Shown piece after piece: positions 47,650 to 59,274 of a stretch of DNA of 64,000 nt. A program made the translations under genes and the position numbers. How positions within the stretch are numbered: position 1 is the stretch's first letter; each line of letters starts with the position of its first letter. The DNA lies in NCBI GenBank assembly GCA_015522685.1, contig WALU01000029.1:2042-66041 (forward strand), given 5' to 3'. This DNA comes from Thermoproteota archaeon. GTDB lineage: Archaea; Korarchaeota; Korarchaeia; Korarchaeales; Korarchaeaceae. The notes under the pieces are model-generated. The model worked only from the letters and a program-made list of their open reading frames with translations. It was not told where the DNA came from and searched no databases.

Positions 47650-47952
47650 ATGACTAGGGCATTAGTATCATCAAAGTGGGTAGTAAAAGACTTTATAGAG
47701 TTATAGAGCTTACAGAATAAACTTAGAGGCTTCCTCGAAGTTGCAAGCGATATAGATGAGATAGAATTAGTATTCGATGAGTTATACCAGAAATCATTGA
47801 AAGAGCTTCTTCATATAAGGATAAATCATATTCCTCCCGAATTCGAGGAGTTCCATTGAGTTGAGTTAGCTGAGAATGAGGCTGATGTCGTTGAAGATGT
47901 TTTGGATGTTCTCAGAGCCATAGCCTTTAAGCATATAGCTTGGCTGTTATGA
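47650..47952 (+). pseudogene. Remnant of a DUF47/PhoU-like phosphate transport regulator with two in-frame stops
   Basis: ..IDEIELVFDELYQKSLKELL..*VELAENEADVVEDVLDVLRAIAFKH; stops near 47704 and 47858. Confidence 0.55.
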
Positions 47953-48455
47953 GTATGAGCATAAGTATAAGGAAACCATCCAATTTCTCCTTCATAAACG
48001 AGCATGTCGCAGGTTCTGCTTATATTAGTAACAAGGAGGAAGTTAATTGGATATATATGAAGGGGATTAGAGTCGCTATCTCACTGGTTCCTCTAAGCAA
48101 ATCAATCAGAGAGAGAATGAGAGAGTTGGAGATAGAGAATTACATTTTCGAGGTAGAAGAGTTCACAGCTCCGCCAATAGAAACCTTAGCTCAAATAGTG
48201 AATTTGATCTGGAGCAAAATAGGGGAAGGTAAGAGAACTCTAGTCCACTGCCTAGCTGGTTGTGGTAGAACGGGAACTGTACTAGCGGCCTATTTGATAT
48301 CGAAGGGAATGATGCCAGATGATGCCATTAAGCAATTGAGAGATTTGAGGCCGTGCTCTATAGAGACTCAACAGCAGTATAATGCTATATGGTTCTATCA
48401 CAGTTACAGATTCAAGGAGAGAATTCACTCTCAATCTCCTCAGCAAGAGCCTTGA
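47940..48455 (+). CDS. Dual-specificity/protein-tyrosine phosphatase
   Basis: HCLAGCGRTGT (CX5R), R.LRP.SIET..Q. Confidence 0.92.
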   Translation: MAVMSMSISIRKPSNFSFINEHVAGSAYISNKEEVNWIYMKGIRVAISLVPLSKSIRERMRELEIENYIFEVEEFTAPPIETLAQIVNLIWSKIGEGKRTLVHCLAGCGRTGTVLAAYLISKGMMPDDAIKQLRDLRPCSIETQQQYNAIWFYHSYRFKERIHSQSPQQEP

Positions 48456-48840
48456 GATCTCCCTCCTCATATGTAAGATCCCTTATTGAGAGAACACCTA
48501 TAGGAACACCCGCTTCATTCACTATAACTAAATGCCTGATGTTGCGCTCTTTCATAAGCTTAACAGCCCTATAGAGAACATCTGTATCCTTTATTGTAAC
48601 AACGTCCTTGATCATTAGCTCCTCAATTTTAGAATTCTCTTTATTGCTAGCTACGGCCCTTAGTACATCTCTCTCTGAGAGAACCCCTAAGAGTTTCCCC
48701 GGATCAGATGAGTCGACTACCACTAAGAAGCCTATTCCCTTTGATATCATCACCTTTGCAGCATCCTTGATGGTTTTATCTGGGGTGATGCTTACCAATC
48801 CATAACCCTTTAGAAGATCTCTTACCTTCATATGAGGCAT
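48412..48840 (-). CDS. Tandem CBS-domain protein
   Basis: Two CBS repeats (GVLSERD, GVLSIRD). Confidence 0.9.
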   Translation of the reverse strand: MPHMKVRDLLKGYGLVSITPDKTIKDAAKVMISKGIGFLVVVDSSDPGKLLGVLSERDVLRAVASNKENSKIEELMIKDVVTIKDTDVLYRAVKLMKERNIRHLVIVNEAGVPIGVLSIRDLTYEEGDLKALAEEIESEFSP

Positions 48841-51525: not shown

Positions 51526-52389
51526 TCAATGCCTAAATCTACATAACCTAAGATATCTGATTAGGGTTCTAACATCACCTATGACTCTTTGCCTCTCTCC
51601 GTTTTTCATGTGCTCATGGAAAGACTCTAATGTGCGTAACATTTTGTTCTTGAGCAAGTTAACCTTATCTGCGGCGTTCATCCTGTTAGCGCTCTTCAAC
51701 CTATTTTCCAGGAGCCCAAGCTTGGCTATACATCTCTTGGCGTTGCCCTCAATGAACTTTATCCTTCTTATAATCTTCTCCCTCGTTAGGTTAAAGTGCT
51801 TCTTTGCCTCCTTCCCTATCTCTCTATATACATCTCTTAGTACTGCTCTTATATTTTTCAGCTTATTCTTAGTCCCATTCAAGTCTCCAGATGCTAGCAG
51901 TGACCTTGCTTCACCAAGCGAAGGCTTAATATTCTTGAGCTTTACTTCCACCAAGGACATATTTACTCCTCTTCTCTCAAGGTTTTTGGTCACAATCCAA
52001 GCCCTTTTTAGAGCTTCTGTAGATCTTTTGATGGAGTACTCCGATTTAACTCCTTCTTTTACCACATCTATATTTTTAAGACTTTTTAGCAGGTCTCTAA
52101 CGGATGAGAGAGCCTGCTTCAGTTTCTTTATGGCTGAAGTAATATTACCATTGGATAGGTCGTTTTTTGCATCCTCTATTAGCACATCATCCTTTGATAG
52201 AACTCTCTCTATTCTCTGAGCTGTTGAAGGGTCTACTTTGCCCTTCAAATTTTGCAGGAATGTTCTAAGGCTCCGATATGAGGATATAAGCTCCTGAGCT
52301 AGCTTATCTCCAGAATTGTATCCATAGACATAAACAGGGATTATTAGCAGAGATATCATAAATAAGACCGTGATTACCTTCATTTCCAT
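51526..52389 (-). CDS. Exported Lys/Arg-rich all-helical protein
   Basis: Hydrophobic N-terminal signal; repeated amphipathic helices (A...L..G....A...L..A). Confidence 0.72.
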   Translation of the reverse strand: MEMKVITVLFMISLLIIPVYVYGYNSGDKLAQELISSYRSLRTFLQNLKGKVDPSTAQRIERVLSKDDVLIEDAKNDLSNGNITSAIKKLKQALSSVRDLLKSLKNIDVVKEGVKSEYSIKRSTEALKRAWIVTKNLERRGVNMSLVEVKLKNIKPSLGEARSLLASGDLNGTKNKLKNIRAVLRDVYREIGKEAKKHFNLTREKIIRRIKFIEGNAKRCIAKLGLLENRLKSANRMNAADKVNLLKNKMLRTLESFHEHMKNGERQRVIGDVRTLIRYLRLCRFRH

Positions 52390-52422
52390 CCCAGAATTCG
52401 ACCATTTAATAATATATTAGGG

Positions 52423-52449
52423 AAGCGTTTGGAACAAGATGGAACGCTT
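52423..52449. promoter_or_regulatory. Candidate operator upstream of the exported helical protein gene
   Basis: AAGCGTT-N13-AACGCTT inverted repeat containing two TGGAAC at 10-bp spacing, next to AT-rich TATA 52407-52419. Confidence 0.45.
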
Positions 52450-52522
52450 ATATCAAACAGTTCTCCCCTAATTACAGATAATATTTATATTGAGCCGGCA
52501 ATCATCAGCTCAGGTGTCCCTG

Positions 52523-53891
52523 ATGGGAGGTCTCGTTGTTTTGAGAATGGATGGTGCCTTCCTTGGAGGTGTTAGCCTTTCAAGCCTCCGGGGTGGTGCC
52601 CTTTGGAGCGATTAGTTGCTCCTATTTCTGGGATTCGTGTGTCAGAGAGCTGGCCAATCACCTCGCAGGAATGAGGGAGGAAGACTTTTATAGCTTGGTT
52701 TCTCCCAGCAGGAGAGTAGACTGGCTCGCGGATGTAAGGGAGAGAGCTATTACGGCGTCATTGGGGTGGGGTCTAGCGCCAGCCGCCTCGATCTTAACTA
52801 GGCCCGATTTCCTAGCAGCTTCAGAACCAATATTTAATCATGGATATCTTTCTGATCTAGTTAATCCATATGATAGTTTTGGAGATGCTCTAGCTGCAAC
52901 TATGAGAATAACTAGGAAGCTAAAGGATGAGCTGGTGGTCATGAGTGATGTACCCACTGAATTAATCAACGTGAAGGAGGTCCCGCTAGGAGGGAACTTT
53001 TATATAGAGCCTCATGGAGAAGAACTCTTTCTAGTTGCAGATAACTTACCAGCAGACCTAGATTATGAGCTCGAGAGTCTTGGAGAGGTCACTAGGGACT
53101 GGAATAGGATGGAGGAGTCAACTGTGGTAGTAGTAAGGACTAGTAAAAAACTGGGTAAGAAGGAGATTAGATCGGCTAAGAGGCTAAAGCTAGTGATAAC
53201 AGCCACTCATGGGCTCGATCACATTGATCTTAATGAGGCAAAAAGACGAGCTGTTGTAGTTGAGAGGGTCCCTGTGAGAGCCAGAGCTGTTGCCGAATCA
53301 ACCCTTGGCCTAGTTCTGGATTTAGCTAGGGGCATAAGTCTAGGAGATAGGAAGATGCGGTCGGGTGAGTGGGCTAAGAAGAAGTTAAAGGGATTTGAGC
53401 TTGCAGGTAAGAGGGCTGGCATAATATCTATGGGAGTAGTAGGTTTTGAGATAGCTTCAATTCTGAGAAGAGTTGGAATGGATGTTTCCTTCTATGATAA
53501 GTATAGAGAAGGCAGTGAGCCTCTAGAGAAGCTTCTTAGAGAGAGTGATGTAATAGTGATAGCATCTCCTTTGACTGAAGAGACGAAGGGTATGATTGGC
53601 CGAAAGGAGCTTGAGATTGTCAAGGATAGAGCTATAATAGTTAATGTTGGCAGAGGGGAGGTCATAGATCTAGAAGCTCTATTGGATTACCTTGAATCAG
53701 GTAAGATTGGAGGAGCTGCTTTGGATGTCTTTTCAAGAGAACCGCCCTTCGACGATTCTGCATATGATAGGCTGAAGGAACTCGACAATGTGGTACTAAC
53801 TCCTCATATAGGAGGTAACACACTGGAATCTGATAGGAGAATAACGAGGGAGGTGATGATGATCCTTGCAAGATGGTTCAACGGTCATTAA
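52523..53891 (+). CDS. serA: D-3-phosphoglycerate-dehydrogenase-like domain fused to a possible alkaline-phosphatase-like N-domain; 1-nt frame discontinuity near 52600
   Basis: C-terminal G.DHID, G.EL.GK, NVGRGEV, DVF..EP, TPHIGG. N-terminal LVVLRMDG in the 52523 frame (SD AGGTG) and LVVMSD in the main frame. Confidence 0.72.
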
Positions 53892-54927
53892 CTTCATCCC
53901 CGGGCCAGTTACACCATCACGCAGGGTTATGAAGGCTTTAAGCTATCCCATGCCTTATCATAGAGGAAAAGAATTCTCAGATATTTATAAGGAGATCAGA
54001 TCGCTGCTTTCACCTTTATTTGGGGGGGATGGAGAAATTTCAGTGATAAGTGGATCATCTACGGCTGGAATTGAGGCTATGATCTCCGGTTTCTCCCTTG
54101 GCAAGAGAGCGGCTGTGATAGCAGATGGAAAGTTCGGTGAGAGGCTGGGGGATATAGCTTCCATCTACAGTAAGGTAAATTACATAAGAGCGGAGTGGGG
54201 GCAGACTCCCACTATCGATCAGCTGGATTCTTCACTTAATGAAGCTGAGTATCTTTTAGTGGTTCATAATGAGACCTCGACCGGAATCGAGCATAAGATG
54301 GATGTAATCTCGGATCTAGCCAGCGATAAAGGTGTGAGCCTACTAGTAGATGTTGTGAGTTCTATAGGAGGAATGAATGTTGAAGCTGAGACGTGGAACG
54401 CTAAAGCTTTAGCAGGTGGGGTTCAAAAGTGTATAGGCGCCCCTCCAGGACTAGCTCCTGTTATGGTGAGAGATTGGGGAGGATATTCAAGAGCTAGTTA
54501 CTACTTAGACTTAATGATATATAGGAAAATGAGTTCTATAGATCAAACTCCATTCACTCCAGCGCTCCCTCTGTTTAATGCTTTGAGAGAGGCATTAATA
54601 GAGGTACATGAGGAGGGCCTTAGGAGAAGAATCAAGAGACACAAAGCTATCTCAAAGATACTGAGGAAGGAGCTTATCAATTTGGGATTCAAGCTCTTTC
54701 CTGAGATGGGAGAAATTGGAAGGTATTCTAGCACAGTAACTGCAATAGTTGTAGGGAAAGCCGAAAAGGTAAGAGAATTGCTGAAGAAAAGAGGAATATT
54801 AGTAGCCGGTGGTCAAGGACCATTGAAAGGAAAAATCTTGAGGCTCGCTACGATGAGCAACATTACTGAGAGAGATGTTTATGCACTAGTCTCATCGTTA
54901 AAGAAGGTAACTAGGGAAGTCTCCTGA
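53866..54927 (+). CDS. Class V PLP aminotransferase (archaeal SerC/serine-pyruvate type)
   Basis: FIPGPV, HRGKEF, HNETSTG, DVVSS.GG, GGVQKC, QTPFTP. Confidence 0.88.
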   Translation: MQDGSTVINFIPGPVTPSRRVMKALSYPMPYHRGKEFSDIYKEIRSLLSPLFGGDGEISVISGSSTAGIEAMISGFSLGKRAAVIADGKFGERLGDIASIYSKVNYIRAEWGQTPTIDQLDSSLNEAEYLLVVHNETSTGIEHKMDVISDLASDKGVSLLVDVVSSIGGMNVEAETWNAKALAGGVQKCIGAPPGLAPVMVRDWGGYSRASYYLDLMIYRKMSSIDQTPFTPALPLFNALREALIEVHEEGLRRRIKRHKAISKILRKELINLGFKLFPEMGEIGRYSSTVTAIVVGKAEKVRELLKKRGILVAGGQGPLKGKILRLATMSNITERDVYALVSSLKKVTREVS

Positions 54928-56500
54928 GGATCTTCTCAGATAGCTCATCACCGAGTCTAGGAGAGAAGGTCCTTATGAAGGGATCTAGGTTCATCTCAAA
55001 GCTTTGTTCTTCTTCATTCCACAGATCAATAGGAAGCTGCCAGTTAGATGGTCCTATTGATAATAAGTAATCTATTTTTTCTAAGTGATCTTTGAAAAGA
55101 ATCCGAATAGATTTCATAACAGTTCCTATTATATGCTCATTTGCAAAGATTATGGCAATCATTCCAACAAGCCCACCACTAGTGAAGAATATTATTGGGG
55201 AGGAAACACTTGAAAAGGCCGCTCTAACTCTCAATAGATCCTTGTATGGTAGATTAAGCCTTACAAGTAAAGCTTCTCCTAGACCTACACCTGCTGGGTA
55301 GTACCCTTTAACGATTATTTCATGCTTTTTATACTTAGCAAACCTCTCTGCTGCGTTTGGTACACCAATCCTATGGAGGTATGTCCTAGAGGCTTTACCT
55401 CGGCTGTTAATCGCGCTTAATGCAAGCATATCTGCCTTATCTAGTTTGATTGGAGGCTTTGATGATCTATATATCTCTCTCCACTCTAGAGGAGTATCCT
55501 GAGCCGAGTTATAGCCCGATGCCATAAGCCCAAGTACCTCCTCAGGTTCAATAGTAGCCAAGGAATGTAAGTCAAATGAGAAACCCTCTGCTTTCCCTAG
55601 CCTCATCTCTCTTCCATTCAGCTGCGAGAACACGTTCTCATACTTTGATGGTATTAAGAAGTAGATATAATTGACATTCCTTAAGGTTACGTATGTAGTA
55701 TATGTATATGGAAAATTCTCAAGAAATTCTATCTCGTCTTTTGTTGGATTCTTCAGCTCCATTAGGTATGTAGAGAGGTTCATTTTAGGGAGATATATTA
55801 CATAAGGTCCGTAGATTACACCTTTACTTATTAAGTCTCTTAAAGCTCTAGATATTGAAGCTAAAGAAAGTCCAGTGTACTTTGAGAGACTCTCTAGTTT
55901 AGCTCCACCTAATCTTATAGCATGCACCAGAGATTTAAGCACTATCAATTCCCTTTTAGACATTCTCACTGAAGGATATTTCATTGCTATCATAGTAAGT
56001 GTGAGATAATCTTTCAACGATATTACCTTATCAGGATGCTGTTTATACAGAAAAAGGAGTGCTTTTGTTATGCTTTTGATTACTTGCCACCTATTCTTCG
56101 CTTTATACCACTGAAGTACCTCAGGAGCGAAGTATCTGGGCATAGTAGGTATATTAACCTCACTGGTGCATTTAGACCACCACTTAGGATCGGCATTGGC
56201 ATAGGCCCATGCTAGATCGTATACCTGAGGAAAATCAACTTGAGGTAAAAAAAGAGTAAAAGCTTCTCTTTTCATCACAACGTTCATCTTATCAGTAGAT
56301 AGATCCCTGCTAATAAGTAGATTTCCCCTTTCTTCTTTTACTCCACTTCTAATATTATTTTCTAATTTAACGTCTGCTAGAGTAACTCTCCTTGGAATTG
56401 GTCTTATAGGAGCCTCTTCTAACCCTTTTTCGATCTTCTTAACTTCCTCAATGAATATTGAAGTGTAATCCTCATTTTTTTCATAGATTCTATGTTGCAC
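54911..56500 (-). CDS. Large multi-domain regulator: unknown N-domain, wHTH, Lrp/ACT-like domain, second degenerate wHTH, C-terminal alpha/beta domain
   Basis: LESLSKYTGLSLASISRALRDLISKG HTH; LDKADMLALSAI..RG.AS second helix motif; leaderless GTG about 25 nt from TTTATTA. Confidence 0.7.
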   Translation of the reverse strand: MQHRIYEKNEDYTSIFIEEVKKIEKGLEEAPIRPIPRRVTLADVKLENNIRSGVKEERGNLLISRDLSTDKMNVVMKREAFTLFLPQVDFPQVYDLAWAYANADPKWWSKCTSEVNIPTMPRYFAPEVLQWYKAKNRWQVIKSITKALLFLYKQHPDKVISLKDYLTLTMIAMKYPSVRMSKRELIVLKSLVHAIRLGGAKLESLSKYTGLSLASISRALRDLISKGVIYGPYVIYLPKMNLSTYLMELKNPTKDEIEFLENFPYTYTTYVTLRNVNYIYFLIPSKYENVFSQLNGREMRLGKAEGFSFDLHSLATIEPEEVLGLMASGYNSAQDTPLEWREIYRSSKPPIKLDKADMLALSAINSRGKASRTYLHRIGVPNAAERFAKYKKHEIIVKGYYPAGVGLGEALLVRLNLPYKDLLRVRAAFSSVSSPIIFFTSGGLVGMIAIIFANEHIIGTVMKSIRILFKDHLEKIDYLLSIGPSNWQLPIDLWNEEEQSFEMNLDPFIRTFSPRLGDELSEKILRRLP

Positions 56501-56876: not shown

Positions 56877-57890
56877 GTGTACATTGTAGCACTGGTAGAG
56901 AAAAATATCCCAGGGAAAGGATTGACAGATTCAGTTGAGCCGATATCTACTATCCTAGAGAAAAAGTTGGGAGCTGATTGGAATGTTTCATACAACGCTC
57001 TAGGGAAAGTTAGAATATATAACTTTGGAATAGCTGTTGCTGAGCAGACAGACCCTCCTGATGAATGGGCAACTAAAGTTTATCCATTAGATAGGGGTTT
57101 TGAGCTGCATACTTCCTCTGAGAGCATCACGTTAGAAGGAAGGGATCTAAGGAATCTTAGAATAGCAATAGATCTTGCTGTCATGAGTCTCTTTGCCTTC
57201 AAAGATCCTCTCATGTGCCTGAAAGAGGAGCTTATCAGAGCGGGCATATTCTATCTGAATCCAAATCTCTGGTCAGATCCTTATCTAGTAGGTAGAGATC
57301 TGGCTGAAGCTTTCTCTTTCATATCAGAAAAACTCGAGCTAGAAAGGAGGTATAATTCGTTCGTGAGATCCCTGCACTTCTTAAGTCAGCTTAATCATTT
57401 GCCGAAAATAATGAACTCTCTTAAATCCTTAGCTGTTTTGGGGATAGAACCTCCCCTAAACAAGAAAGATCTTTTTTACACAGAGCAGCTCTCGCCTATC
57501 GAAATAAAGGTTCTAACCGCATTGAGTGTAAAGGAGGCGATAGATAGACTCTATGGGTTAGATGCAAGGAGGATCGTATCCTTGCTATCGGATTTGATGG
57601 GGCTGAGCTCGGAATCTTTTGATAGAAGAAAACTCCTCAAATCTCTTTCTCAGAGGGAGTTAAGGGAGGGGCTTACCCTCAGCGAGATATCTCATGTACT
57701 CGGTATAGATAAGGCTTACCTGTGGAGGAGCATTCTGCCTAAGATGATAGATAGGTTCCTTGTGATAGTAAGCGATGACAGATATAGAGGCAAGGTTGTT
57801 AAAACGTATAGGCCCAATATATCTCTTCCTCCAATCAGCGATATGGTTATTTCGTTCTCCCTCAACCTGAGCTATCTAGTAAGAGGTTAG
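56877..57890 (+). CDS. Hypothetical protein with a C-terminal winged HTH
   Basis: GLTLSEISHVLGIDKAYLWRSILPKMIDRFLV...G..VKTYRPN. Confidence 0.65.
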   Translation: MYIVALVEKNIPGKGLTDSVEPISTILEKKLGADWNVSYNALGKVRIYNFGIAVAEQTDPPDEWATKVYPLDRGFELHTSSESITLEGRDLRNLRIAIDLAVMSLFAFKDPLMCLKEELIRAGIFYLNPNLWSDPYLVGRDLAEAFSFISEKLELERRYNSFVRSLHFLSQLNHLPKIMNSLKSLAVLGIEPPLNKKDLFYTEQLSPIEIKVLTALSVKEAIDRLYGLDARRIVSLLSDLMGLSSESFDRRKLLKSLSQRELREGLTLSEISHVLGIDKAYLWRSILPKMIDRFLVIVSDDRYRGKVVKTYRPNISLPPISDMVISFSLNLSYLVRG

Positions 57891-57895
57891 ACTTA

Positions 57896-58477
57896 ATGCT
57901 AAATAGAGAATTCTTCTGTAGGGATCCTGTTTTAGTGGCTAGAGACCTCCTAGGTAAACTCTTAGTTAGAGATTACGATGGAAGGAGACTATCAGGGATC
58001 ATTGTAGAAACTGAGGCATATCTTGGGATATATGACAAGGCATCACGGGGATATGGAGGTAGAATGACAAATTCTATGAGGCCTCTATATGAGGATTGTG
58101 GACTTCTCTATGTGTATCCTGTTCATATGTATTTGATGCTTAATGTCACTGCAGCCCCACCTAAGGAGCCTACTGCAGTTCTCATCAGGGCTTTGGAGCC
58201 CTTGGAAGGTATAGATACTATGACAGAGAACAGAGAAATAAAGAATATCAAAAAGCTCTGCTCAGGCCCCGGACGATTGACTAAGGCCCTTAGAATAACT
58301 AAGGAATTCAATGGGTTGAGTGCAGTCAATGAACTCATTCACTTTGAGGATTACACGAAGGTTAAGGAGAGCGAAATAGTTGCAACTAAAAGAGTAGGTG
58401 TTGATTATGCAGGTAGGCATGCAGATCTCCCTCTGAGGTTCTACATAAAAGGTAGCAAGTTCATATCTAAGCATTGA
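57896..58477 (+). CDS. mpg: 3-methyladenine DNA glycosylase (MPG/AAG family)
   Basis: VARDLLGK.L, GIIVETEAY, LYVY..H...LNV, VLIRALEP, GPG.L..AL.I, RVG, LRFY. Confidence 0.92.
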   Translation: MLNREFFCRDPVLVARDLLGKLLVRDYDGRRLSGIIVETEAYLGIYDKASRGYGGRMTNSMRPLYEDCGLLYVYPVHMYLMLNVTAAPPKEPTAVLIRALEPLEGIDTMTENREIKNIKKLCSGPGRLTKALRITKEFNGLSAVNELIHFEDYTKVKESEIVATKRVGVDYAGRHADLPLRFYIKGSKFISKH

Positions 58478-58485
58478 TCTCATAT

Positions 58486-59274
58486 TTAGAGGCCACTTTT
58501 CCGTTCCTCTCCAGTAACCATCCTATATTCTCTTTCCACGAGACTTTGAGCCAGATCTAAGTACACTTCAGTAGTTCTAAGGCTGCTGTGCCCGAGGATG
58601 CGCTGCAGTACCCTAGGATTCCCTCCCTTTGAGAGAAACCAGACAGCGAATGCATGTCTTATCGCATGAGGATGCGTATTCAGGAGGCTGGAAACCCACC
58701 TCCTAATTGTCCTGTCAGTAATACCAAACACTAACTTACCTCTTCTGGGTAGTTCCCTCAGGAGGCTGGTTGTTCTCTCGGTGAAGTAGACGTACCTGTA
58801 CTTGCCTCCCTTTCCATGAACCCTAGCTCTCTTGTTAGTCATGTCAACATCATTCCACCTCAGAGATACCAGCTCGCCAACACGCATTCCAGTTTCAGCT
58901 AACATCATTATGGCTGCCCTTTGCAGGGGTTTAGCATCTGAAAGCAGATTATCAATCTCTTGATACGTCCTTATCAGATCCTCATCTACCTTAGGCATTG
59001 GAGGAGGTGCTCTTATCTCCTTCGCTAGGGCTCGAGCCTCCTTGCTTAGATTTTCTCTGCCAGCTATTCTGAAGAGCCTCGATAGCATATAGAGCTGTTG
59101 CTTAAGGGTGCGCCTGCTTACCCTAGACTCCCTCTTAGATGCCCATATCCTCACATGAAGGGAGCTTGCCTCATTAAGTGGGATCATTCCAAGAAAGGAT
59201 CTGAATACTGGGAGATATTTTCTTTTACTTGAGCTTGAGAGCCCTGCAAGAGCTGCCTCCACAAGTTCATCCAT
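58486..59274 (-). CDS. xerA: XerA-like tyrosine recombinase
   Basis: TGMRVGEL (R), GKGGK (K), HPHAIRH (HxxR), LGH, TT..Y. Confidence 0.85.
   Translation of the reverse strand: MDELVEAALAGLSSSSKRKYLPVFRSFLGMIPLNEASSLHVRIWASKRESRVSRRTLKQQLYMLSRLFRIAGRENLSKEARALAKEIRAPPPMPKVDEDLIRTYQEIDNLLSDAKPLQRAAIMMLAETGMRVGELVSLRWNDVDMTNKRARVHGKGGKYRYVYFTERTTSLLRELPRRGKLVFGITDRTIRRWVSSLLNTHPHAIRHAFAVWFLSKGGNPRVLQRILGHSSLRTTEVYLDLAQSLVEREYRMVTGEERKSGL

Follow-up and report, generated by a model that had tools for sequence, protein, structure and literature searches.

The locus studied here occupies positions 52523-54927 of a 64,000-nucleotide (nt) stretch of contig WALU01000029.1 of a korarchaeal archaeon, and this whole stretch is referred to below as the window. 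It carries a gene for a SerA-like 2-hydroxyacid dehydrogenase with an additional N-terminal domain, followed by an overlapping class V aminotransferase gene. The beginning of the dehydrogenase gene is distributed over two reading frames, named frame A (the frame of ATG 52523) and frame B (the +1 frame of the main open reading frame, ORF). With moderate confidence, it is proposed that a programmed +1 ribosomal frameshift joins the two into one protein of ~455 residues, in which a diverged domain of the HAD/phosphoserine phosphatase (PSP) type would be fused to a phosphoglycerate- or hydroxypyruvate-type D-2-hydroxyacid dehydrogenase. The coding features are the following:

52523..52615, plus strand: frame-A ORF, 30 codons and a TAG, MGGLVVLRMDGAFLGGVSLSSLRGGALWSD; the full protein is proposed to take its HAD strand 1 and motif I from the first 18-27 of these codons
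52551..53891, plus strand: main ORF (frame B), 446 amino acids (aa), first codon ATG 52551
52578..53018, plus strand: frame-B part of the N-terminal domain, predicted to form a HAD/phosphoserine-phosphatase-like helical cap and core strands 2-5 (AlphaFold model, low confidence)
53019..53891, plus strand: D-isomer 2-hydroxyacid dehydrogenase domains (PF02826, PF00389), PGDH/glyoxylate-reductase-like, without an ACT domain
53866..54927, plus strand: class V aminotransferase (PF00266) of the AGXT/serine-pyruvate type, overlapping the dehydrogenase gene by 26 nt

An initial annotation of this DNA had placed about 170 extra residues before the dehydrogenase and had started them at ATG 52523, led by a Shine-Dalgarno (SD) sequence. 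The extra part was indeed found, with ~165 residues ahead of the 2-hydroxyacid dehydrogenase core, ~155 of them in frame B. The Pfam dehydrogenase matches begin at residue 185 of the 446-aa ORF, and the first strand of the dehydrogenase (EELFLVADNLP), which aligns with the N-terminus of Pyrococcus SerA, lies at about residue 157. The strings LANHLAG and DELVVMSDVP, quoted earlier from this part, are also present in the translation. The proposed start is supported by its SD core (AGGTG) and by its conservation, but the N-terminus MGGLVVLRMDGA... is that of frame A, which is not the frame of the remaining gene and closes in translation at TAG 52613-15. The string RGGAFGAISCS arises only if one base near 52600 is skipped, although the protein corrected in this way is backed by the comparison of 25 loci; this tacit correction and the choice of ATG 52523 turned out to be what was most useful in the initial annotation. 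In frame B, a conserved start served by an SD was not found. Met41 of the window is GTG, TTG, ATA, GTC or GTA in other species, and ATG 52551, the start chosen by the gene caller, precedes an in-frame TAG in 8 of the 18 distinct sequences (7 species genomes), the others having TTG at that position. Gene callers give stand-alone proteins of 406-462 aa, their predicted starts vary by species, and the database entries for the protein have at least five different N-termini, so that the locus is an example of how genes of this kind are mis-started.

The N-terminal 155 residues were searched for in 43 genomes of the phylum. Of the 20 other genomes of the genus, 18 have them, and the 22 genomes from nine other genera gave no match; the fusion is thus present in relatives but limited to one genus. 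Orthologues of the dehydrogenase part at ≥60% identity occur only in the genomes of this genus that carry the N-terminal domain, and the best dehydrogenase matches in other genera are paralogues of ~340 aa with 35-43% identity. A metagenome scan provided 7 further loci, and the comparison set comprised 25 loci representing 18 distinct sequences, with protein identity down to ~45%. The two-frame layout is identical in all 25 and none of them has an uninterrupted (in-frame) version; the frame break is universal and therefore not a sequence error. When the 60 nt upstream of the frame-B alignment were translated in 18 loci, conservation continued through the stop codons. In the DNA alignment, the ~85 nt after ATG 52523 are far more conserved than the coding sequence downstream. 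Frame A stops 1-5 codons past an invariant CCTTTGG in every sequence, and downstream of CCTTTGG frame B shows ordinary protein conservation (CSYFWxPC, REExFY, GWGLAP). Purifying selection acts on both the frame-A and the frame-B parts.

The signals upstream of frame A are the following:

52484..52491, plus strand: TATA-like box TTTATATT, ~39 nt upstream of ATG 52523, with TTTATATA, TTTAAATA or CTTAAGTA in the same column (17/17 aligned loci)
52512..52516, plus strand: SD core AGGTG, 6 nt before ATG 52523; most relatives have GAGGTGATC with 5-nt spacing, and GGTG is invariant

From archaeal promoter geometry, the predicted transcript start would leave a leader of ~10 nt. ATG 52523 itself is conserved in the alignment. 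Between this ATG and position 52564, 20 columns are variable, of which 11, 5 and 4 fall at frame-A codon positions 3, 1 and 2, respectively (third-position excess in the first 14 codons, P 0.04). The changes form synonymous series in frame A (GGT/GGG/GGC, AGA/AGG, GCC/GCT, CTT/CTA) or conservative replacements among V, I and L, and residues G3, L4, R8, D10, A12, F13, L14, G15, G16 and V17 are invariant. Judged by this pattern, the first 14 codons vary as a frame-A coding sequence. The change from CTT to CTA, silent in frame A, is the source of the frame-B TAG.

The frames must be joined between the frame-B TAG (position 52563-65) and the first of the frame-A stops, which corresponds to 52607-09. 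This interval of ~41 nt contains two similar modules, the first of them within a predicted hairpin:

52561..52593, plus strand: predicted mRNA hairpin, CCTTGGAGG (52561-69) paired with CCTCCGGGG (52585-93), the loop containing site 1
52565..52571, plus strand: internal SD-like GGAGGTG, 5 nt upstream of candidate site 1 and part of the 5' arm of the hairpin; invariant except for one A-to-G change in one locus (L011)
52577..52582, plus strand: candidate +1 shift site 1, CTT_T with TCA (Ser) as the next frame-A codon; other loci have (C/T)TT_TCG; TTTC invariant, downstream of the frame-B TAG
52590..52595, plus strand: second SD-like element, reading GGGGTG here and GAGGTG in most relatives, followed after 5 nt by candidate site 2; GGTG invariant
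52600..52606, plus strand: candidate +1 shift site 2, CCTTTGG (frame A CTT TGG; frame B TTT GGN), invariant in 25/25 loci

At each site the P-site codon is a slippery one that could pair anew after a +1 step (YUUU, 52577-80; CUUU, 52601-04; both invariant), and the spacing from SD-like element to site equals that from the genuine SD to AUG in this gene. In the 1.48-Mb genome, G[AG]GGTG-N5-ATG occurs 44 times and G[AG]GGTG-N5-CTTT only 9 times, two of which are at this locus, 24 nt apart. The genome has 16 SD-like-N5-YTTT sites in all; at these two, the 0 frame closes within 12 codons and the +1 frame stays open for >400 codons, a combination that none of the other 14 shows. Positions within both YUUU motifs that are synonymous in frame B show no variation in the 18 distinct sequences, which points to constraint beyond frame-B coding. 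The longest homopolymer run at the sites is ≤4 nt. A tRNA-Leu(GAG) is present in the genome, and UCG is its rarest Ser codon (7%), the window itself having UCA at site 1. As to Arg codons, CGN is nearly unused in the whole genome (each 0.6-1.2 per thousand; AGA and AGG together 93% of Arg), and CGG, CGA or CGC is nevertheless found between the candidate shift sites in most species.

The six GGAGGU/ACCUCC pairs of the hairpin are kept in 18-19 of 19 sequences (RNAalifold), with one-sided changes only, and the RNA fold of the window's own sequence has z = -3.7. Such structure, in a region more conserved than the coding sequence behind it, could be explained if positions 52510-52610 acted as a folded regulatory RNA, similar to a riboswitch leader, and did not code in frame A. 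This is considered very unlikely, as Rfam gave only chance-level matches over 52200-52900, a compensatory change was found in none of the 25 predicted pairs, and the first 14 codons vary by frame-A codon position behind a conserved ATG and SD. An RNA element and a frameshift are, moreover, compatible with each other. A bulge-helix-bulge intron was considered as well and is unlikely, the predicted structure being without 3-nt bulges separated by a 4-bp helix.

The fold of the N-terminal domain provides the second line of argument. Sequence profiles gave little: residues 1-180 matched no Pfam or NCBIfam model at E values up to 1-10, Pfam scans of 17 members were also empty, phmmer, run with the N-terminal part on 1.84 billion representative proteins, returned only the domain's own cluster, and an ESM Atlas features search gave nothing at 0.9 or above. 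The top PDB-profile match was to a class III nucleotidyl cyclase (5oyh, E 1.1, over GYLSxLxNPYDxFG...MR); this candidate was ruled out, as hhalign against eight plasmid cyclase domains gave P 0.025-0.05 over 32 columns only and the match was lost with the fused profile.

An AlphaFold run on the whole 446-aa frame-B ORF left the N-terminal domain unusable (predicted local distance difference test score, pLDDT, 36-67), and the structure searches used a model of the frame-B part alone (m052bdfe4d5c3; 52578-53018, 17-sequence alignment). The best E value in Foldseek was 0.5, which is not significant, and ~30 of its top 50 rows were HAD-superfamily proteins, among them ThrH, the phosphoserine phosphatases 1l7o and 4ap9, phosphonatase, an epoxide-hydrolase N-domain and P-domains of P-type ATPases. 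VIA-align, which is independent of Foldseek and was run on 48,161 representative chains, placed the Methanocaldococcus (M.) jannaschii phosphoserine phosphatase first (1f5s_A, Z 6.0, root-mean-square deviation 3.6, 139/147 residues, chain 18-211), with Brucella SerB 7qpl (Z 5.8), 3fvv, the T. onnurineus PSP 4ap9, the Francisella PSP-like 3kd3, ThrH 1rku and MtnX next. The top phosphoserine phosphatases reached Z 6.0-5.4 with 123-141 of the 147 residues aligned, and nearly all 50 listed rows were HAD proteins. The weight of this match comes from the homogeneity of the list and the near-complete coverage, not from the Z value. Every structural match begins at chain residue 14-28, directly after HAD strand 1 and the DxDxT motif, and the central strand is therefore exactly what the frame-B protein would be missing.

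The frame-A peptide has four hydrophobic residues followed by R-M-D-G-A-F-L (LVVL-R-M-D-G-A-F-L). Compared by hhalign with a 246-column profile of 28 korarchaeal SerB-like proteins, this peptide alone aligned to the motif I strand (columns 11-25, FDmDGTLi, P 0.023), and the whole fused domain aligned in the order motif I, cap, II, III, IV with P 0.09-0.1 (reversed controls 0.4-1); the global mode of hhalign yielded nothing. Based on the model and the searches with it, we infer that the N-terminal domain is a strongly diverged HAD fold of the phosphoserine-phosphatase type (SerB/PSP, C1-cap). The initial annotation had instead assigned it to the alkaline phosphatase, cofactor-independent mutase (PGM) and NPP superfamily. 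This assignment is not supported, as the structure searches point to another fold, the outcome that the annotation itself had named as refuting, and it is extremely improbable: the likeness extends to the motif level of the hhhhDG and hhhSD strings only, Pfam, NCBIfam and PDB profiles gave no such match, ~165 residues are too small for the core of that superfamily, and the HG metal ligands are absent, the SDHG-type strand reading SDVPT without any His in 16/16 fused sequences. Both structure searches were dominated by HAD proteins, and no title of that superfamily was found among the 50 rows shown for each (with a model of low confidence and without the first strand).

Taken together, comparative genetics, which calls for two frames to be joined here, and the fold, in which the long frame lacks a strand that the short frame can supply, make a programmed +1 frameshift likely. 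Transcription from the conserved TATA box would give an mRNA with a short leader, the ribosome would start at ATG 52523 behind its SD, and 18-27 frame-A codons would supply HAD strand 1 and a degenerate motif I. Somewhere in 52566-52606 the ribosome would move by +1 into the long frame, with (C/U)UU_UCR (52577) and CUU_UGG (52601) as two equivalent candidate sites, both of which may be used. Ribosomes that do not shift would terminate after 28-31 codons. In prfB, the gene of bacterial release factor 2, peptidyl-tRNA-Leu on CUU_U re-pairs on UUU with UGA in the A site, the SD-like element being spaced at 3 nt. Since the SD-like spacing at the korarchaeal sites equals the genuine SD-to-AUG spacing, base pairing to the 3' end of 16S rRNA would likewise keep the slippery Leu/Phe codon positioned in the P site.

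Several points weigh against this explanation. As to the fold, the model of the frame-B part is poor (pLDDT 57.7, predicted TM-score 0.48), a Z of 6 falls in a range also seen for unrelated models and is not decisive, and hhalign P values of 0.02-0.1 are not significant alone. As to the shift, the 5-nt spacing differs from the 3 nt that stimulate +1 shifting at prfB, the A-site codon UGG of site 2 is not rare, the incoming +1 codon at site 1 is a very rare CGN in most species, and the hairpin is without the covariation mentioned above. Moreover, between the two sites the variable columns are spread evenly over codon positions, with similar numbers of synonymous-only changes in both frames (hand tally), an even constraint that would agree with a junction at either site. 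Finally, the conserved frame-B GTG codons at 52569 and 52593 could possibly be internal starts.

The last two points would equally be expected of two overlapping genes translated without any frameshift, i.e., a conserved upstream ORF of 28-31 codons, whose peptide would be a leader, a regulator or a strand supplied to the domain in trans, and a dehydrogenase started at one of the two invariant GTGs. The stand-alone proteins given by the gene callers would also agree with such an arrangement, which is nevertheless judged rather unlikely. Both GTGs are part of the SD-like motifs, no SD lies at a distance from which it could serve them, the predicted starts differ between species, and a protein started there would miss the central strand implied by all structural matches, whereas the upstream peptide resembles exactly that missing strand.

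If the frames are joined, what the N-terminal domain does may be read from its motifs. Motif I is RxDGA instead of DxDGT, with the invariant Arg8 at the position of the nucleophile, the Asp at +2 kept (D10) and the Thr changed to Ala12. In the weak hhalign register, the Ser of motif II corresponds to G81, the Lys of motif III to F119 and the GD of motif IV to S141-D142, where the first Asp is kept (D142) and the second is G146. The HAD catalytic motifs would thus look degenerate, with replacements at the nucleophile Asp, at the Ser of motif II and at the Lys of motif III, although the register lends these residue assignments little certainty. An active, non-canonical phosphatase for phosphoserine or another phospho-ester, which would make the frameshifted fusion a bifunctional PSP-PGDH, appears quite improbable on account of these replacements (Asp to R8, Thr to Ala, Ser/Thr to Gly, Lys to Phe). 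A separate SerB-like HAD protein is, in addition, encoded in 37 of the 43 genomes of the phylum, the window's genome included (214 aa, locus L035 at G000:C32:68402-68962; 85.6 bits vs the SerB cut-off of 144). On the other side, all 37 of these proteins score below the SerB cut-off, the top structural matches of the domain are phosphoserine phosphatases, D10, K134, D135, S141 and D142 are invariant in the fused sequences, and the gene pairs this domain with a dehydrogenase and, in one subclade, with an aminotransferase of serine metabolism.

A more probable role for the domain is that of a pseudo-phosphatase which binds a ligand or regulates the enzyme in place of an ACT domain; this role is preferred here because most catalytic HAD residues seem replaced and the enzyme has no ACT domain. 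The ACT domain is the serine sensor in many SerA enzymes. The initial annotation had offered a non-SerB phosphoserine phosphatase, a mutase or an inactive regulatory module; this was partly right, in that the domain resembles a phosphoserine phosphatase, but of the SerB/HAD kind, and the degenerate motifs favour the last of the three. As to its question whether the genome lacks serB, an absence is not clear, in view of the SerB-like protein below the family cut-off.

A further, speculative and fairly unlikely extension is that the tandem SD-like-N5-YUU_U modules form an amino-acid-sensing translational switch, with the pseudo-phosphoserine-phosphatase domain sensing phosphoserine or serine. 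In such a switch, the slippery codon would be kept in the P site by anti-SD pairing, the next codon, for Ser (UCR) or Trp (UGG), would await its tRNA in the A site, and a low level of charged tRNA would cause more +1 shifting and hence more of the serine-pathway enzyme. If true, the gene would represent the first case of regulated +1 frameshifting among the cellular genes of archaea.

The remaining part of the fused protein is, from its sequence, a D-isomer specific 2-hydroxyacid dehydrogenase. In Pfam, the NAD domain PF02826 covers residues 252-421 (E 3e-51, 173.6 bits) and the catalytic domain PF00389 begins at residue 185, which is profile position 35 (E 5e-14, 52.6 bits). R368, E397 and H419 occupy the catalytic-triad positions and are invariant in 20 sequences including Pyrococcus SerA. 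The equivalog cut-offs of SerA were missed (TIGR01327, 208.6 vs 454; PRK11790, 190.7 vs 404), as was that of glyoxylate reductase (PRK13243, 174.4 vs 455). The nearest solved relative is the P. horikoshii PGDH 1wwk (E 3.5e-54), with glyoxylate/hydroxypyruvate reductases close behind. The dehydrogenase part (53019-53891) also has SMGVVG for the family GxGxxG and ATHGLDHID for the AGVGLDNID of its relatives, both kept across the genus, and these deviations suggest an altered handling of cofactor or substrate.

The aminotransferase had been described as SerC-type. It is of class V and overlaps the dehydrogenase gene, but the SerC models score far under their cut-offs (PRK05355, 43 vs 253; TIGR01364, 35.2 vs 443.6), and its best solved relatives are class V enzymes of the AGXT type (PucG, alanine-glyoxylate and serine-pyruvate aminotransferases). 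It adjoins the dehydrogenase only in the subclade with the window (11 loci by tblastn). In the other subclade (L012-L018, L024-L026), the dehydrogenase gene is monocistronic and followed by a convergent gene of 517 aa; the proteins of this subclade have a basic C-terminal tail of 15-30 residues. An aminotransferase of the AGXT type would fit the non-phosphorylated serine-hydroxypyruvate-glycerate route equally well. The genome also encodes SHMT and two further 2-hydroxyacid dehydrogenases.

Several other features were observed in the surroundings. A few kb upstream, a dual-specificity/PTP-type phosphatase (47940-48455, plus strand; PF22785, PF00782) converges on and overlaps a protein with two CBS domains (48412-48840, minus strand). 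Downstream, an ORF of 529 aa (54911-56500, minus strand) shares 17 nt with the 3' end of the aminotransferase gene and, like an ORF of 337 aa (56877-57890, plus strand), has no Pfam family. A methylpurine-DNA glycosylase (57896-58477, plus strand) adjoins a tyrosine recombinase of the phage integrase family (58486-59274, minus strand), and an integrated element may have its boundary at this pair. In the 92%-complete assembly, ARAGORN did not find tRNA-Trp, tRNA-Tyr, tRNA-Ser(GCU) and tRNA-Ser(CGA), probably because of multiple or non-canonical introns.

Among known enzymes, HAD phosphoserine phosphatases (1f5s, 4ap9, ThrH 1rku) give the best structural matches to the low-confidence model of the N-terminal domain, over nearly its whole length with the helical C1 cap and the Rossmann-like core; the profile alignment follows the motif order I-IV, and the context is likewise that of serine metabolism. 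The domain differs from them in the absence of significant sequence similarity and of any HAD match in Pfam or NCBIfam, in its RxDGA motif I, in its fusion to a dehydrogenase and in having strand 1 in another frame. The dehydrogenase part resembles the short archaeal PGDHs and glyoxylate/hydroxypyruvate reductases (1wwk; 2dbq, 5aov), with 38-45% identity, the Arg/Glu/His residues, an NAD-type fold and neither ACT nor ASB domains; unlike these, it has the extra N-terminal domain, SMGVVG for GxGxxG and THGLDH for GVGxDN, and it falls below every equivalog cut-off. A degenerate SerB-like domain on a SerA-like dehydrogenase without ACT would, if true, be a new way to build, and probably regulate, the enzyme.

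As for the frameshift, the layout is similar to prfB in that a short 0-frame ORF precedes a main body in the +1 frame, with CUU_U, an SD-like element upstream and a 0 frame that closes nearby. The differences are the sense codon in the A site of the korarchaeal sites (UCR or UGG), the 5-nt spacing of the initiation type, the presence of two tandem modules, and the setting in a metabolic gene of an archaeon, without an obvious autoregulatory logic via a release factor. The locus raises the question whether SD/anti-SD pairing also acts during elongation in archaea, as in bacteria. Our literature search found no paper that ties frameshifting, or this gene, to Korarchaeum. A 2021 review names the -1 shift of Saccharolobus solfataricus fucA1 as the sole frameshift demonstrated for a cellular gene of archaea (PMC8211752). 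The same review reports +1 frameshifting as only suspected, in one haloarchaeal virus, together with a predicted frameshift of unspecified direction in a methanogen Mg-chelatase (PMC8211752). Like the korarchaeal gene, fucA1 encodes an archaeal enzyme in two ORFs, a short one for the N-terminal and a long one for the C-terminal part, whose overlap amounts to a few tens of nt, with rare codons and a putative stem-loop nearby (PMC1616953, PMC8211752). However, fucA1 shifts by -1 at A-AAA-AAT and has uninterrupted relatives, while the korarchaeal shift would be +1 and none of the 25 loci has an uninterrupted version. As a +1 candidate that is genus-wide, with two clean and easily mutated sites and a structural reason for joining the frames, the korarchaeal gene would offer a testable case for recoding research beside prfB and fucA1.

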